This document shows, in pieces, positions 22,973 to 33,338 of a stretch of DNA of 64,000 bases. The notes beneath the pieces were generated by a model, which did not search any database, was not told the DNA's origin, and saw only the letters and a list, made by a program, of their open reading frames with translations. Origin of the DNA: a virus (Duplodnaviria; Caudoviricetes); the IMG/VR virus record IMGVR_UViG_3300032321_001419, positions 2,327-66,326 of that record. One strand, 5' to 3'. Positions within the stretch are counted from its first letter, which is position 1. Every line of letters begins with the position of its first letter. The translations under genes and the position numbers were made by a program.

Positions 22973-24234
22973 TATTTTATAATTGTTTCTTTACGTTCAC
23001 ACCAGCCTCTTTCATTACTATAAGCCCATAGTACTACTTTGGTAGGATTTTTTTCTACTAAAACCGATTCTTCAAAATCAAAATATCCGTTTGGTTGAGA
23101 TAATGCCATTTTTACAAATTCCTTATCTAAAGATCTATTATAAATAGGTAATCCATTTTCATCATCAAATGCTAAATGAATAAATTCATAATCATCATGA
23201 GGGAAGTCAGCTTTTATAATCTGTACTAAATGATAGAATGATTTTAATAATGAATCTTCCCAATTCTCTACTGGAGGATTAGGAGGATAATTATTGTCTG
23301 TAGTGTATTTTTGTACTGATTTATTTTTAAAATCAACACCTGCATATTTTTCATAATCATGAATGCTACGAACAGTACCTAAGTCATATCCGGTTAAATC
23401 ATAACCATTATCTTCTACTCTAAATAGTTGTCTAATTTTGGCACGTGCTTTTTCTTGTTTATTCCACCAGTCAACACCTCTTTTAGCATCATCGTCCCAC
23501 TTTAACATTCCATTACGTTCTTCTCTCATAGTAGCGTGCCATACTACTAATTCATGAGGATGGAACATATCGTATCCGTGAGTATATGATCTAACTGTTA
23601 AGTTAATTTCCTCTCCACTAAAATAGATATCAGGATCGTGTTTTATTTCTTTAGCCCATTCCGCTCTAGCAAAACAAAAATGTCCTGATAGAAATCTTGA
23701 TGGAGGTGGTTCAGTCATGTTTTGCCATCCAGTTAGTAATCCTGGTCTGATAAAAATTGTACCATGAGGATAAAAACAAACAAATGTTTGTTGCCAAGGT
23801 TCCATTGTTCTTCCAGCGGGATCGTTGAACGGATCATAATATGGCAAGTAGGCAGCTAAAATTGGTTTATGTCCTTTACGCTCGAGACCTGCGTGCATTT
23901 TTATTAGTGTCACGTCCCAATTTTTAGCAAATCTGTGATGAGAATCTAATTGACAAATATAATCTTCATCAGTTAATAATTCCTCATTTATAATAGCTCT
24001 TGCCCAGGGTAATCCTTGAGCTTCAGTATATAATACATCCTTAATTTTAAATCTAGGATCGTTTCTATATTCATCTACATTATCAAATTCATCTTCAGGA
24101 TGATATTGTCTGCAAATACCAAAATGAATTCTTTCAGGGTATTTAGCATTTTCTAATGCTGATTTAATTGTAGGAATTAATTCTGGCTCTCTATACGCTG
24201 GTAAATGAACTAGTATTGTATCTTTCTTACTCAT
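22972..24234 (-). CDS. GT60-like (PF11397 GlcNAc) polypeptide HexNAc-transferase
   Basis: ILVHLPAYREPE, RIHFGI, QLDSHHRF (DxH), WD, FLSGHFCF, HDPDIYFSGEE, RSYTHGYD..HP. Confidence 0.75.
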   Translation of the reverse strand: MSKKDTILVHLPAYREPELIPTIKSALENAKYPERIHFGICRQYHPEDEFDNVDEYRNDPRFKIKDVLYTEAQGLPWARAIINEELLTDEDYICQLDSHHRFAKNWDVTLIKMHAGLERKGHKPILAAYLPYYDPFNDPAGRTMEPWQQTFVCFYPHGTIFIRPGLLTGWQNMTEPPPSRFLSGHFCFARAEWAKEIKHDPDIYFSGEEINLTVRSYTHGYDMFHPHELVVWHATMREERNGMLKWDDDAKRGVDWWNKQEKARAKIRQLFRVEDNGYDLTGYDLGTVRSIHDYEKYAGVDFKNKSVQKYTTDNNYPPNPPVENWEDSLLKSFYHLVQIIKADFPHDDYEFIHLAFDDENGLPIYNRSLDKEFVKMALSQPNGYFDFEESVLVEKNPTKVVLWAYSNERGWCERKETIIK

Positions 24235-25495
24235 AAGCTATAACTGTTTCTATTCTATCACACCATCCTTTAGATTCACTATAAGGCCATACTCTCCAAG
24301 AATGTGGTTTTTTATTGTCTTCATACTCTCTCCAAATATGAATAAATTGATCATTAGGATCTGATTTTAATAAACCTTGTATTTCATTAGTTTCAGCATC
24401 TTGTCTATAAATGTCATTACCATTTTCATCTAATAATGCTACAGCAAAACTAGTATAATCAGTTTCTAGTAAAGATCCTTTATAAACATCAATACAAACT
24501 TTTTGTTGTACTAATAAATTATCAAAAAAGTCTTCCCATGATTCTTCAGGCATTGGAAGTGGTTTATATTCATAAGTATGTCTATGTACTTTACGTTTTC
24601 TAAATCTAACACCAGCATAACGCTCGTATTCTTCTAAAGTACGTTCTTCACCAAAGCCAAATTCTGCTAGTTTTTTCTGTTGGCAAGGAGTACATCCTTC
24701 TTCCATACCAAATAATTGTCTATATCTTAAATAAGATTGAGAATCTCTTTCAGGCCAAGTTGAATCATCATCCCATTGTTTAATTTTTCCGTTTCTAGTA
24801 TATTCGTGCCAAATAACAGGAATATGAGGATGAAATAAATCATAACCAAAGGTAAATGATCTAGCAGCTAATGAAGATTCTTCACCGTGAAAATAATATT
24901 TGGGATCGTATTTAACTTCTTTAGCCCATTGACCTAAAGTAAAAACAAAATGAGCTGAGAAGAATCGAGCCATAATAGGTTCTTGTACTTCTTGCCAGTT
25001 AGTTTGACTATGTGGTTTTATAAAGATAGGACCTTGAGGTAAAAATCTATCAAATTCTAAAGTCCAAATTTCTTGTAATTTAGATTCATTTGATGGTTCA
25101 TATGAAGGAAGATAAGCTGTTAATAATGGTTTTTTATGACCTTTTTTCTGTAGGTCTTTAAACATTTTAATTAAAGTTATATCCCAATTTTTAACAAATC
25201 TATGATGTGAATCTAATTGAAGATAATATGTTTCATCTTTATATAAACCTTGAATTAAATTTCGAGCCCAACATACACCTTCAGCATCTTTATAATTAAT
25301 ATCTTCAATAGTAAATCTAGGATCGTCTTTATACTCATCTAAATTATCCCATTCATCATCTGTTGAATGTTGCCATGCAATTCCAAATCTAAGATTTTCT
25401 GGGTGTTTAGCTTTATCTAAACAGTCTTTAAGAGTTTTAAGTAATTCAGGATCTCTATATGCTGCTATAGAAATGAATATTGTGTTTTTTGACAT
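24227..25495 (-). CDS. GT60-like (PF11397 GlcNAc) polypeptide HexNAc-transferase, paralog
   Basis: IFISIAAYRDPE, NLRFGI, GVCWAR, QLDSHHRF, FFSAHFVF, YDPKYYFHGEE, RSFTFGYD..HP. Confidence 0.75.
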   Translation of the reverse strand: MSKNTIFISIAAYRDPELLKTLKDCLDKAKHPENLRFGIAWQHSTDDEWDNLDEYKDDPRFTIEDINYKDAEGVCWARNLIQGLYKDETYYLQLDSHHRFVKNWDITLIKMFKDLQKKGHKKPLLTAYLPSYEPSNESKLQEIWTLEFDRFLPQGPIFIKPHSQTNWQEVQEPIMARFFSAHFVFTLGQWAKEVKYDPKYYFHGEESSLAARSFTFGYDLFHPHIPVIWHEYTRNGKIKQWDDDSTWPERDSQSYLRYRQLFGMEEGCTPCQQKKLAEFGFGEERTLEEYERYAGVRFRKRKVHRHTYEYKPLPMPEESWEDFFDNLLVQQKVCIDVYKGSLLETDYTSFAVALLDENGNDIYRQDAETNEIQGLLKSDPNDQFIHIWREYEDNKKPHSWRVWPYSESKGWCDRIETVIAYE

Positions 25496-25865: not shown

Positions 25866-26279
25866 TTAGTGATGAGTTTTTTTACTCTCAATGGGAGCTA
25901 AGCCATTTTTTACACGGTAATCGTTAATGGCGGCTTTAATTGCATCTTCGGCTAATACCGAGCAGTGAATTTTTACTGGTGGTAAAGCCAATTCCTCTAC
26001 AATATCCATATTATCGATCGTCATTGCATCGTCAATTGATCTGCCTTTTAACCATTCGGTAGCCAACGAAGATGAAGCAATGGCTGAGCCACAGCCGAAG
26101 GTTTTAAACTTCGCATCGGTAATTACATTGTTGCTATCTACCTCAATTTGCAAACGCATTACGTCGCCACACTCTGGTGCGCCAACTAAGCCTGTACCTA
26201 CATTGTTCTTGCTCTTATCAAGCGTACCAACGTTACGTGGATTGGTGTAATGATCAATTACTTTATCTGAATATGCCAT
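25866..26279 (-). CDS. iscU: Fe-S scaffold IscU
   Basis: YSDKVIDHYTNPRNVG, GAPECGDVMRLQI, KFKTFGCGSAIASSS, LPPVKIHCSVLAEDAIKAAI. Confidence 0.97.
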   Translation of the reverse strand: MAYSDKVIDHYTNPRNVGTLDKSKNNVGTGLVGAPECGDVMRLQIEVDSNNVITDAKFKTFGCGSAIASSSLATEWLKGRSIDDAMTIDNMDIVEELALPPVKIHCSVLAEDAIKAAINDYRVKNGLAPIESKKTHH

Positions 26280-27065: not shown

Positions 27066-27704
27066 TTATTTTAAAACTGCTCCATTAACTTCAATTGCGT
27101 GTAAGAATTCTTCACGAATCATATTATTTTTCTCCATAAACACACCACTAAATTTATTAGTAGTCATTATAGATGGGTGTTTAATACCTCTATGTGAGCA
27201 ACAAGTATGTTTACAAGCAATGCTAACTGCTACTGATTCACAAGTCATTTTATCTGCAACATAATCGTGGATTTGTTGTGTTAATGATTCTTGCATTTGT
27301 GGTCTACGAGCAAACCATTCAACAATACGATTTAATTTAGATAAACCAATTACATTTTCAGCAGGTACATAAGCTACTGTAGCATAACCTGTAAATGCTA
27401 AATTATGATGTGCACACATACTAACAATTGGAATACCTGATTGAATAACTAAGCCATCATAACCTTCATCATTAGGAAATACAGTCATATTTGGTTCAGG
27501 TGTAATTGAACCTACAATTAGATCTTTTAACCATGCTTTAGCTACACGACGAGGTGTATCTACTGTTTGTCTGTCTGCTTTATAATCGAATCCAACTGCT
27601 GTTAAAAATCCAGCATACGCTTCTGATGCTTTTTCGATCATTTCTTCAATTTCCTCTGCAGAGCGAGGTAAATTACCATTTGATTTTTTTAATAATTCTT
27701 TCAT
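27066..27704 (-). CDS. folE: GTP cyclohydrolase I
   Basis: TPRRVAK, SMCAHH, GLSKLNR, ARRPQMQE, HTCCSHRG. Confidence 0.93.
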   Translation of the reverse strand: MKELLKKSNGNLPRSAEEIEEMIEKASEAYAGFLTAVGFDYKADRQTVDTPRRVAKAWLKDLIVGSITPEPNMTVFPNDEGYDGLVIQSGIPIVSMCAHHNLAFTGYATVAYVPAENVIGLSKLNRIVEWFARRPQMQESLTQQIHDYVADKMTCESVAVSIACKHTCCSHRGIKHPSIMTTNKFSGVFMEKNNMIREEFLHAIEVNGAVLK

Positions 27705-27721
27705 ACTTTAAATATAATGAT

Positions 27722-28516
27722 TTAATTTTGATGGTCCAACAATACTTTTTCTACTGATGTTTTTGCAACTTCCCAACTTACAGGACCTGTTTCATCTTCA
27801 TATTGAACTGGATCTTTACGTCCTAATTTAATAAATGCTTCAATACGCTCTACTGATGAAGCTGATTTGTAATCTGAATTTCCGCTTGGATATGGTTTAT
27901 AAGATGTATTAGTTTTTGAATATACTTCATCAAAATTTAAACTTAATTCTTCACATAATACTTCTCCGTCTTGTAAGATAGTAAATTTATCTCCTTCTAA
28001 GTAAGGTGTAAAGTATCCTACTTTTTCAGCATCCCAATTACCAATTCTAAAAGCTGCATCATCTGCATCTCTAAATTCTTGACGACAATCTGGATAAATT
28101 GCATGATCTCCAGCGTGAATACCTAAAGCGATATCACAAGTTTCACCTGTTCTTTGTGCAACTGATAATGCTACTGCTTGAGTAATTGAAGCAAATATTT
28201 TATTACGATTAGGTACAACTGTAGCTTTCATGTTGTCTTCAGCATAATGTCCTTCTGGTATATCTTCACCTCCAGTTACTAATGCTGAATCTAATAAATC
28301 AACTAATCCATTTAATTGGATTTGACGATAGGTTACTTTTTGTTCTTTAGTATTAATATAATCTACTAATGATTGAGCTCTTTCTAGCTCTACTCTGTGT
28401 TTTTGACCGTAGTCAAATGAAATTGCTGTTACGGAATCATATCCTTTTAAGCAACGTAACAATAATGTACTGGAATCCATCCCTCCTGATAGGGATACTA
28501 CAACGTGTTTTAACAT
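27722..28516 (-). CDS. queC: 7-cyano-7-deazaguanine (preQ0) synthase
   Basis: SLSGGMDS PP-loop, FDYGQKH, VPNRN, HAGDHAIYPDCR. Confidence 0.92.
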   Translation of the reverse strand: MLKHVVVSLSGGMDSSTLLLRCLKGYDSVTAISFDYGQKHRVELERAQSLVDYINTKEQKVTYRQIQLNGLVDLLDSALVTGGEDIPEGHYAEDNMKATVVPNRNKIFASITQAVALSVAQRTGETCDIALGIHAGDHAIYPDCRQEFRDADDAAFRIGNWDAEKVGYFTPYLEGDKFTILQDGEVLCEELSLNFDEVYSKTNTSYKPYPSGNSDYKSASSVERIEAFIKLGRKDPVQYEDETGPVSWEVAKTSVEKVLLDHQN

Positions 28517-28536
28517 AAAATTTATTTGTTTAAATA

Positions 28537-28568
28537 TGCCAGGTATTTTAAGCGTATAGGCAAACGCT
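28537..28568 (-). ncRNA. Candidate H-type pseudoknot cis-element in the queC leader
   Basis: Minus RNA AGCGU-UUGCCUAU-ACGCU-UAAAAUACCU-GGCA: a 5-bp stem whose loop UGCC pairs with the downstream GGCA; ends 20 nt before the queC ATG. Confidence 0.5.
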
Positions 28569-29346
28569 ATTTATTAATAATTGTTCTAAATTCTTTAACG
28601 TTTTCAGTTATAAAATTCATATTTGGAAGCATATCCTGTTCAAAAAATATTTCCATTTTATCTTTAGGTTTTGTTAACATACCAAATTTATCGTATGCTT
28701 TTTTATTAGCACCAACTAAAATTGGATTTGATGTATCTACAGATTTAATAAAATCATAACCATCATAATACATAAATTCTTGTGGTAATGAAGCACCTAA
28801 TAAATGGAAATAAACATCATCTGTTACAATTTGTGAGAATAAATGTACAGTCTGAATTCGGCCCATCATCTTAGACACTAAATTATTTTTATGAGGATAT
28901 AAAGCGTTATATGCTATTGAGGAATGATTAAGAGCAAAATAACGATAACCTAAACCATAACTAAATTTATATAATCTTCTAATTTCTTCATATGATTCAC
29001 CTTGTAATACAACCATTAAATTAGTATTAATTGGTAATTGCTCTTTTAATTTAATCCATTCTTGAGCATGTTCATATGTTTTAGACCAATCATTCCATTC
29101 ATCAGGAATGATAAATACATTTGGAGTTAATAATTTAATTAAATCAAGTAATGCATCTGTAGTATATGTTTCACCTTCAAATAAACCATTATCTAAAATA
29201 GAGAATCTACCTTCTTCTTTACACTGAAGGTAAAATGCTTTATATTCTGGATAACGTAAATAAAAGTAGGGTAAAATATATTCATAATCATTTACTTTCT
29301 TGCTCCAAGATAATAAATCTAAAGGTACTTCGTGACTAACCTTCAT
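28567..29346 (-). CDS. Divergent TGT/DpdA-like TIM-barrel protein (candidate deazaguanine transglycosylase)
   Basis: ILDNGLFE, IIPD, VVLQG, FHLLG and SVDTSNP resemble the TGT/DpdA LDSG..., VxQG, HxLG and SxD motifs; lies between queD and queC. Probable start is MKVSH at 29346. Confidence 0.5.
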   Translation of the reverse strand: MKVSHEVPLDLLSWSKKVNDYEYILPYFYLRYPEYKAFYLQCKEEGRFSILDNGLFEGETYTTDALLDLIKLLTPNVFIIPDEWNDWSKTYEHAQEWIKLKEQLPINTNLMVVLQGESYEEIRRLYKFSYGLGYRYFALNHSSIAYNALYPHKNNLVSKMMGRIQTVHLFSQIVTDDVYFHLLGASLPQEFMYYDGYDFIKSVDTSNPILVGANKKAYDKFGMLTKPKDKMEIFFEQDMLPNMNFITENVKEFRTIINK

Positions 29347-29800
29347 AAATAGCGGTGTTTTTGGCATGTTCCATAAATTCTACTCTTACAATTTTAACTC
29401 TACCTTCTGTTTCTTCTTGAATAAATGTATTTAATTTTTCATAGATATATTTTGCAAATTGTTCTGCTCCAACAGCAGGAATAACTCTTAACTGAATAAT
29501 ACCTAAATTATCCATTGTTTTAAATCCACCCAAACCAGGATCATCTTCTGTTATAATTGTAGTATGATCAAACATATAATCCATCCATGCTTTAGGATTC
29601 ATACCATCAATAGTTCCTTTAGCACGTTTCATGCCTCCAAAATCCCAAACCCAATTGCGTTCGTCTAATTCTCCCTCGAACCATACTCTAAATGATACTC
29701 CGTATCCATGTAAAAATTTACAATGTGTGGATTCGGCTTTCCATTGACGAAATACACAGCTGAATCCGTCAAATAATTTTGTTGATTGAAACTTTCCCAT
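29336..29800 (-). CDS. queD: 6-carboxy-5,6,7,8-tetrahydropterin synthase
   Basis: CKFLHGY (CxxxHG), VWDFG, FDHTT, AEQFA, VEFMEH. Confidence 0.88.
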   Translation of the reverse strand: MGKFQSTKLFDGFSCVFRQWKAESTHCKFLHGYGVSFRVWFEGELDERNWVWDFGGMKRAKGTIDGMNPKAWMDYMFDHTTIITEDDPGLGGFKTMDNLGIIQLRVIPAVGAEQFAKYIYEKLNTFIQEETEGRVKIVRVEFMEHAKNTAIYEG

Positions 29801-31487: not shown

Positions 31488-33338
31488 TTATACTACTTCA
31501 CAAGCTCCACCTGCACAGGCTGCTTGATCTTGTAAATTGGTTTCATCACTAAATTCAACAATTTTTGTTAAATCAATGTTATGAACATGATCAACTAATT
31601 CATTAAACTTTTCTTCTGTAATATCTTCAAATGGTGCTTGGGTATATGAACCTCCAAAGTAAGGTAATACTGATAATCCATTAAATGTATTTCTATTTTC
31701 CCACATCCATTGTCCTACTTTTTCCCATTCACCTTCTTGAATAGATACTGTAGCAGATACGTTATTAGTATTTGCACCTTTACGATGTCCTTTTTTAACC
31801 CATTTAGTATTAAATAATTTAACACGTTCTAACATATCCATTACATCTTCAGTTCTTAAAATAGAACCTTCTGGGGCTCTTTGAGGTACTGAAATTACAG
31901 CTTGGATTGTTGGTTTAAAGAAATCATCCTCTACTAATTCAGGATGGTAGATTGATAGATAAGTATAAATTGCTTCGTTTTTACCTACACGGATACGACG
32001 GATATAGTAGTCATTGTGCCAAGCGTGAATACCTGATGAAGTACCTAATACTAATGATGAAGTACCTGATGGTTTTACTGTAGTTACACGAGCAGCTTTA
32101 TTAATATCTAATAATTCAGCAACACGAGCATTTTCTTCTTTAGCTACATCAGCAGATTCTTTTAAGTTGTATTGTAATACAGCTCCTGAACCAATACCAG
32201 TCATACCTACACCTAATAATGCATCTTTTTCAGTTGTTTTTTTCCAAATATCTCTTAAATAATGGAAATCAGTATATGATGCTTGTAAAGTACCAATAAA
32301 TGATGCTGCTTTAACACGCTCATTTAAATCTTCTTGCGATTCAACATTTGAAACGTTTACTTCACATAAGTTACAGAATTGATATGGTTTTAAAGCAATT
32401 TCACAGCATGGATTTGTACCCCAATCTTTATCATTTGAGAAGTAGATACCTGGTTCACCAGATCCACTCAATTCAATTTTTTTCCATAAATTAAAGAATT
32501 CATCTTCAGTAATAGCGTGACGCATTACAACAGCTGAGTTATTAGCTCTACCACGTTGTGGATGTTCTTCCCACCAATTACCAAATTTACAAGTTAACAT
32601 TAATTCATCATCTAAATCGAATAAAGAAATTAATGCTGCTCTACGAATACCACCTGATAATACTGCATCAGCAATATAACAAATAATATCGTGTACTTCT
32701 AATGAAGTTAATTTATCTCCATTTTCTTTACGATCAAGAATTTTTTGAATTTGGAATAAACATTCTTTTAATGGTTCAGGACCTGGTGCTTTACCACCTA
32801 CAGTGATTAATTGAGCACCTTTAGCTCTAATGTCTCTAAAATCAAAGTTAGGAATTGGAGCTCCTGTAAAATATGATTTTGTTAAAGCACGAACAGCATC
32901 AGCCCATCCTTCAATACTATCACCTACTAGGAAACGTTTAGTTTTAGTTGGACGTTTAATTTCAGGTAATTGATCAATATGATGAGTTTGAACACTATAA
33001 CCTACTCCACAGCCTGATAATAACAAGAACATTACTTCTGAGAATGATCTATAATCATCAATTGGTAAAAATGAACAGTTGAATATACGTGAATTATTTA
33101 ATGCAATAGGTTTACCAGCAAATTGTAAAGAACGCATCGATGGTAATACCTTCTTATCGTAAACTAGTTTATATACTTTTTCAATTTCTTCTTTTAATGC
33201 AGGATATTTTTCCTGATGCATTTCTTTGTTACGAGTTACTAGTTCTTCCCATGTTTCGCGTCTTTGTTTACTAGGAACATATTTACTATATTTCATATAG
33301 CAAGTAATGTCACTAAGAATCTCTTGTGTGATATCCAT
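31488..33338 (-). CDS. nrdJ: Class II (adenosylcobalamin-dependent) ribonucleotide reductase, monomeric type
   Basis: RETWEE, FNCSF, GCGVG, GGKAPGPEPL, GGIRRAA, TNPCCEI (radical Cys), CNL, TVKPSGT, C-terminal CAGGAC; no beta-subunit gene adjacent. Confidence 0.8.
   Translation of the reverse strand: MDITQEILSDITCYMKYSKYVPSKQRRETWEELVTRNKEMHQEKYPALKEEIEKVYKLVYDKKVLPSMRSLQFAGKPIALNNSRIFNCSFLPIDDYRSFSEVMFLLLSGCGVGYSVQTHHIDQLPEIKRPTKTKRFLVGDSIEGWADAVRALTKSYFTGAPIPNFDFRDIRAKGAQLITVGGKAPGPEPLKECLFQIQKILDRKENGDKLTSLEVHDIICYIADAVLSGGIRRAALISLFDLDDELMLTCKFGNWWEEHPQRGRANNSAVVMRHAITEDEFFNLWKKIELSGSGEPGIYFSNDKDWGTNPCCEIALKPYQFCNLCEVNVSNVESQEDLNERVKAASFIGTLQASYTDFHYLRDIWKKTTEKDALLGVGMTGIGSGAVLQYNLKESADVAKEENARVAELLDINKAARVTTVKPSGTSSLVLGTSSGIHAWHNDYYIRRIRVGKNEAIYTYLSIYHPELVEDDFFKPTIQAVISVPQRAPEGSILRTEDVMDMLERVKLFNTKWVKKGHRKGANTNNVSATVSIQEGEWEKVGQWMWENRNTFNGLSVLPYFGGSYTQAPFEDITEEKFNELVDHVHNIDLTKIVEFSDETNLQDQAACAGGACEVV

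Follow-up and report, generated by a model that had tools for sequence, protein, structure and literature searches.

A conserved, covarying pseudoknot ahead of phage queC genes: a candidate preQ1-I-like riboswitch

Judged by comparison across phage queC loci, a 32-base H-type pseudoknot on the minus strand of a phage DNA (positions 28568-28537 of the 64-kb stretch analyzed here, hereafter the window, which belongs to a 66-kb IMG/VR virus record), situated directly ahead of queC, is a real, conserved and covarying RNA structure tied to that gene. On balance we lean toward the view that it is a translational riboswitch peculiar to phages, built along preQ1-I lines and sensing a 7-deazapurine intermediate. 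Its features are those generally looked for in riboswitches, namely a conserved and covarying putative aptamer with invariant unpaired bases, placed in cis to the genes of a single pathway. The riboswitch-like interpretation offered in a preliminary description of this DNA is thus borne out in part: the conserved, queC-linked pseudoknot is there, with the architecture of preQ1-I but without its signature bases, while the sensing of a ligand stays at the level of probability given above.

Anatomy and genomic setting of the element

The spacer between a 266-aa open reading frame and queC is 50 nt long. Within it the preliminary description had placed a pseudoknot at 28537-28568, with a P1 of 5 bp, a P2 formed by UGCC/GGCA, an A-rich linker and 20 nt to the queC AUG, and we recovered this geometry in every detail. 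The parts of the element are as follows:

28564-28568, minus strand: 5' strand of P1 (AGCGU), pairing with 28555-28551; its top base U28564 is invariant
28563, minus strand: L1, 1-2 nt here and 1-4 nt among relatives, with the first base mostly U
28559-28562, minus strand: 5' strand of P2 (UGCC), within the P1 loop, pairing with 28540-28537
28556-28558, minus strand: L2 (UAU); its last base U28556 is invariant and occupies the position of the preQ1-I specificity C (PMC11625349)
28551-28555, minus strand: 3' strand of P1 (ACGCU); its first base A28555 is invariant
28541-28550, minus strand: L3, A-rich, 10 nt, with an A-Y-A-C block at 28546-28543 in which A28546, A28544 and C28543 are invariant
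28537-28540, minus strand: 3' strand of P2 (GGCA), pairing with UGCC
28517-28536, minus strand: linker of 20 nt to the start codon, A/U-only, without a Shine-Dalgarno sequence and without an alternative helix

The AUG of queC follows immediately at 28516, and at the other end the UAG stop of the upstream ORF (28569-28567) covers the first two bases of P1. A28557 and U28541 could lengthen P2 across a bulged U in the main type of the element, and both positions are fixed. Folding of the single sequence is unremarkable (z-score of the minimum free energy -0.64), and hence the case for the pseudoknot was built on comparison. Such single-sequence folding also suggested a hairpin between GGCAUA and the start codon, which was discarded as relatives do not keep it. 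The core pattern of the element occurs once in the window against an expectation of zero.

The genes around the element belong to a 7-deazaguanine cluster:

27066-27704, minus strand: folE (PF01227, E = 1.1e-47), directly downstream of queC
27722-28516, minus strand: queC, 264 aa (PF06508, E = 1.2e-36), the gene presumed to be controlled
28567-29367, minus strand: upstream ORF, 266 aa, with a DpdA/TGT-like lead; its UAG stop overlaps P1
29336-29800: queD, neighbor of queC and the 266-aa ORF

A dCTP-deaminase-like gene is also found among the neighbors of queC, and folE is probably co-expressed with queC. The 266-aa ORF has no match in Pfam, the PDB or the functional PHROGs; its companions in the ESM Atlas are viral clusters labelled transglycosylase/DpdA, one of which carries the DpdA family PF23859 in 17% of its members. 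It is probably a divergent DpdA-type DNA transglycosylase, a lead with which a separate earlier note on this ORF agrees. Among the relatives queD and/or folE often come after queC and a DpdA-like gene often before it. Searches for the radical-SAM enzyme QueE and for QueF gave no match in the 66-kb record, which is estimated to be 39% complete, the one sub-threshold QueF match being FolE itself. Just downstream of the deazaguanine cluster lie genes for a NifU-like Fe-S scaffold protein (25866-26279, minus strand, E = 4e-52) and a GlcNAc-type glycosyltransferase (24227-25495, minus strand), and upstream of the cluster there is a ribonucleotide reductase class gene (31488-33338).

Conservation, covariation and linkage to queC

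QueC-anchored retrieval from IMG/VR yielded 372 loci with 171 distinct upstream contexts, and in about 129 of the latter the element lies in the same place ahead of queC. About a quarter of the close relatives are without it; in these queC is coupled to the upstream gene, either overlapping the upstream ORF or being separated from it by a short unstructured spacer, and no further variant type was found among those element-less relatives that have long spacers. In an alignment of 75 distinct instances P1 is 99.2% paired, with compensatory changes at 4 of its 5 pairs, and its covariation score of 0.502 was reached by none of 500 shuffles (0.184), while registers slid along the alignment collapse. 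P2 occurs as five complementary helix versions, (U)GCC/GGC(A), GGCCC/GGGUC, GCUAC/GUAGC, GUUCC/GGAAC and ACUCC/GGAGU. Since these types cannot be placed in one MAFFT register, P2 was counted by script and the variant subgroup was aligned separately; there P2 pairing reaches 100%, with both sides altered at three of five pairs. The aligned sequences are kin, and cell counts overstate the number of independent events; the recurrence of identical P1 variants with differing P2 and L1 variants nevertheless argues for repeated compensatory change. Six bases are invariant across the 75 distinct sequences (U28564, A28555, U28556, A28546, A28544 and C28543), comprising the top U-A pair of P1, the last base of L2 and three bases of L3. 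The comparison of related queC leaders that the preliminary description had called for thus gave a clear answer: there is conservation and covariation, and a covariance model built from the 75 distinct homologues gives the site 57 bits, with the second-best match within the window at 16 bits.

Both P1 and P2 contain G.U pairs among the relatives, which would be A.C mismatches on the opposite strand, and the structure can hence be assigned to the queC-sense RNA. This asymmetry bears directly on an action at the level of DNA or of the other strand, in which the site would be a promoter, a protein-binding palindrome or a plus-strand terminator. The P1 palindrome together with a T-rich tail was indeed flagged as terminator-like on the plus strand (28551-28568). 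Against such an action, however, stand several observations besides the loss of the G.U pairs on that strand: 1) the T-rich tail belongs to the end of a coding sequence, and the gene concerned is not the same from locus to locus; 2) there is no plus-strand gene to terminate; 3) there is no sigma-70-like promoter and the TTTG candidate is not conserved; 4) covariation in P2 would be meaningless for a palindromic DNA site. In view of the strand-specific G.U pairs and the non-conserved tail we dismissed the terminator call as an artefact of the same hairpin, and a Bacteroidetes-type promoter built on the TTTG in L1 was rejected as L1 varies among relatives. An action at the DNA level is, to our mind, barely credible.

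The element is linked to a single gene. A pattern scan of IMG/VR recovered 118 stretches: in 62 of these P1 is intact and the ORF that follows is complete, and every one sits 18-25 nt before queC; 4 are truncated by the locus border, and the remaining 52 lack P1 and are chance matches rich in GC. The element is retained down to 48% QueC identity and with varying upstream and downstream genes. The record studied here has one copy, at queC, and the same holds for phage immuto, whose genome is complete at 160 kb, and for a pair of IMG/VR records of 167 and 177 kb with a completeness rating of 100%; no additional copies were found elsewhere in the phage genomes examined. Flavobacterium phage vB_FspM_immuto is the sole cultured carrier in the phage collection. 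In bacterial genomes, none of the 120 matches listed by a pattern scan combines P1, an A/U context and queC; a covariance-model search of 151 sampled Flavobacteriaceae genomes and 3 more gave best scores of 18-24 bits and no real instance, these searches being samples rather than proof of absence.

Comparison with preQ1-I and other pseudoknotted RNAs

PreQ1-I riboswitches consist of a small hairpin and an A-rich tail of about 12 nt that folds back into the loop, and regulate queCDEF in bacteria (PMC3273816; PMC11625349). Their ligand is recognized by the specificity C before the 3' strand of P1 (in a UC/AC motif), the G of a floor pair, U6 of L1 and A30 of L3 (PMC8752633; PMC11625349). The preliminary description had held that the present element has the architecture of this class with the signature bases absent, and both halves of that statement proved correct. 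We compared it with RF00522 (types I-III), as represented by the riboswitches of B. subtilis queC, T. tengcongensis, C. antarcticus and E. coli yhhQ. The following are shared: 1) a length of about 34 nt, a P1 of 5 bp, a short L1 and a short P2 formed between the hairpin loop and the 3' tail; the layout is that of an H-type knot, with a P1 of about 5 bp, a short L1, a P2 of 3-4 bp and an A-rich L3, and P2 spans 3-5 bp across the relatives; 2) an A-rich L3; 3) a position before queC or a preQ0-synthesis operon; and 4) a presumed action on translation. As regards the preQ1-I pattern of U at the first position of L1 and of A followed by C in the tail next to P2, the picture is mixed: the first base of L1 is U in about 85% of the distinct sequences, and L3 has its invariant A, A and C in the A-Y-A-C block, set off from P2 by 1-2 additional bases.

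The differences fall at the pocket and in the downstream region: 1) the specificity C of preQ1-I is replaced by an invariant U (75/75), or by an invariant A if the top pair of P1 is read as unpaired; 2) the G-C floor, which contacts the aminomethyl group in preQ1-I, is a U-A pair in 75/75; 3) L3 reads A-Y-A-C-Y in place of the poly-A run; 4) the preQ1-I expression platform, in which P2 lies over the Shine-Dalgarno sequence or a terminator is formed, is absent, and P2 ends 17-25 nt before the AUG; and 5) unlike preQ1-I, the element has been seen only in phages of Flavobacteriia-type hosts. As the pocket departs from preQ1-I exactly at the ligand-contact positions, the element would constitute a natural experiment in changing the specificity of a 34-nt scaffold.

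We ran the cmscan check against the Rfam preQ1 families that had been proposed earlier, and none of their models detects the element. At E <= 10 there was no preQ1 match at the site in either 111 nt or 3 kb, including with preQ1-II (RF01054) and preQ1-III (RF02680); on the whole 66-kb record the best scores of RF00522 were 9.9 and 6.7 bits, both elsewhere and to be set against a family threshold of 39 bits. All 4227 models of Rfam 15, among them SAM-II, SAM-V, fluoride and guanidine-III, returned at E <= 10 only a chance miRNA match on the other strand. PreQ1-II and preQ1-III are likewise pseudoknotted and serve the same pathway, but they are two to three times larger and have HLout-type folds.

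An ordinary if divergent preQ1-I member that binds preQ1 in the usual way would account for the shared topology and size, the A-rich tail ending in A-C, the usual U in L1 and the downstream queC (PMC11625349). Yet a member of that class should be recognized by RF00522, should have C where the element has an invariant U and G-C where it has an invariant U-A, and should have a Shine-Dalgarno sequence within or beside P2, of which there is none. We therefore hold this identification to be very improbable, and the data largely exclude both it and an action at the DNA level.

The departures at the contact bases recall instead the 'snuggler' variants of known riboswitches, such as those of guanine-I that bind 8-oxoguanine, xanthine or 2'-dG, in which the scaffold is kept, the contact bases are altered and a new ligand is bound (PMC11625349; PMC9295807). 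Snugglers are, however, still detected by the parent Rfam model, whereas the present element is not matched, and descent from preQ1-I is therefore itself only one of two possibilities. The element may be either a deeply diverged relative of the snuggler type, its pocket rebuilt, or a structure that arose independently. Put at its fullest, the proposal is of a phage-only riboswitch class that kept the preQ1-I scaffold, rebuilt the pocket, senses another 7-deazapurine (preQ0 or CDG) or some other metabolite and acts, at a distance of 20 nt before the AUG, on Shine-Dalgarno-independent translation in Flavobacteriia; in this extended form we advance it tentatively, at a little short of even chances. 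We found no description of the element in the searchable literature, and it may stand unnamed in the supplementary lists that accompany a set of about 10,000 viral structured RNAs (PMC10690425).

Another likeness is to the leader of T4 gene 32, likewise part of a phage message, in which a pseudoknot lies on the 5' side and the stretch from there to the start codon is A/U-rich and unstructured; the T4 operator governs the gene of its own RNA/ssDNA-binding protein, whereas the gene presumed to be controlled here encodes a biosynthetic enzyme. This likeness is the starting point for an alternative in which the knot is a protein-bound translational operator, nucleating a phage or host RNA-binding protein that would coat or obstruct the A/U linker in the manner of T4 gp32 on its own leader, with a RegA-like repressor, S1 or a TGT/DpdA-type enzyme as candidates. 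A knot joined to the AUG by an A/U-only tract is precisely the gene 32 arrangement (one that also figures in PMC10690425), invariant loop bases suit contact with a protein equally well as a ligand pocket, and a DpdA/TGT-like gene stands directly upstream here and in many relatives. At the same time, in many other element-bearing loci the DpdA-like gene is not adjacent to queC, and the single copy, found only at queC, is at odds with a general repressor, which would be expected to have several targets. Additionally, we know of no RNA binding by QueC. We thus regard a protein operator as unlikely, though it deserves to be kept in mind.

Expression signals and the putative mechanism

Around the element the signals point to translation. 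Among relatives P2 and the AUG lie 17-25 nt apart, most often 20, the linker between them is made up of A/U to 95%, and RNAalifold applied to the motif, linker and start region returned P1 only. No terminator on the sense strand, anti-terminator or sigma-70-type promoter was found at the element. The stop of the upstream ORF lies between -2 and +5 nt from P1 in 64 of the 85 contexts that have such an ORF, which makes the element normally intercistronic; the earlier label 'queC leader' therefore holds as regards its place directly before queC but not as regards the start of a message, for here and in most relatives it begins at an upstream stop within one. An intercistronic position in turn speaks for control at the level of translation rather than for transcription attenuation. 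Taken together, the linker, the spacing, the lack of terminator and promoter, the adjacency of the stop and the arrangements in element-less relatives indicate a putative control of translation initiation that is independent of the upstream cistron.

These same arrangements admit a simpler explanation, a constitutive structure that senses nothing and serves to insulate queC from coupling to the upstream cistron, as a standby or enhancer site in the absence of a Shine-Dalgarno sequence, or as a processing or stabilizing end of the queC message. That the element begins at the upstream stop codon in most contexts, and that queC overlaps or abuts the upstream ORF in relatives without it, suggests alternative ways of handling ribosome traffic. 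But six invariant bases and a strict topology maintained over five P2 variants exceed the needs of a spacer or stabilizer, and within these genomes the element is found at queC alone. We consider a purely constitutive role quite unlikely.

What favors a small-molecule switch is the combination of conserved bases at the junction, linkage to one gene, single copy, marginal helix lengths and the precedent of preQ1-I on queCDEF. Marginal helix lengths are typical of knots stabilized by a ligand. Under the riboswitch reading the element would act in cis as an RNA switch on the translation of queC. The likeliest role of the six invariant bases at the P1/P2 junction and in L3 would be to build a binding pocket for some small molecule from the 7-deazaguanine pathway, with preQ0, the product of QueC, as our first guess and preQ1 and CDG as alternatives. 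PreQ0 is attractive as it is the QueC product and as its nitrile could not use the guanine floor that is absent here (PMC11625349).

The hosts are Flavobacteriia, which to our knowledge start translation without Shine-Dalgarno pairing, on unstructured A-rich leaders. Once folded, the knot would make positions -21 to -52 unavailable as a single-stranded landing zone, so that the 20-nt A/U linker alone stays open, and the loading of 30S/S1 would thereby be altered on queC and on the genes downstream of it (folE in this DNA, queD or folE among relatives). As to direction, an OFF switch would be a weak guess by analogy with preQ1-I.

Several points weigh against the riboswitch reading: 1) with the specificity C and the G-C floor gone, the ligand cannot be read from homology; 2) with 20 nt between the knot and the AUG, and no Shine-Dalgarno sequence for it to mask, its coupling to initiation is a conjecture; 3) phage immuto swaps every G for a preQ1 derivative, formyl-preQ1 (PMC10516641), and a tight feedback OFF switch is of no obvious use in a pathway with so high a flux; and 4) about a quarter of the close relatives manage without the element.

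Nearly all riboswitches known so far belong to the housekeeping metabolism of bacteria. Should the element prove to be one, phages would carry a metabolite sensor of their own on the guanine-replacement pathway by which they escape restriction enzymes, and a DNA-hypermodification (anti-restriction) pathway would for the first time have a riboswitch of its own. The element would also show how translation can be brought under aptamer control where the host does without Shine-Dalgarno pairing. Being small, abundant and present in a cultured pair, vB_FspM_immuto and Flavobacterium sp. LMO8, the element is directly open to experiment.

Two observations on individual loci may be added. In several IMG/VR loci (L001, L002, L012, L088, L097 and others) QueC has an N-terminal extension of about 8-15 aa (MQLE.. 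or MTQLE..), and the pseudoknot keeps its distance of about 20 nt to the earlier AUG of these extended proteins, so that the spacing constraint concerns the true start codon. In another locus, L398 (~1430-1500), the A/U linker is present as in carriers such as L041, yet there is no pseudoknot, which looks like a recent loss.
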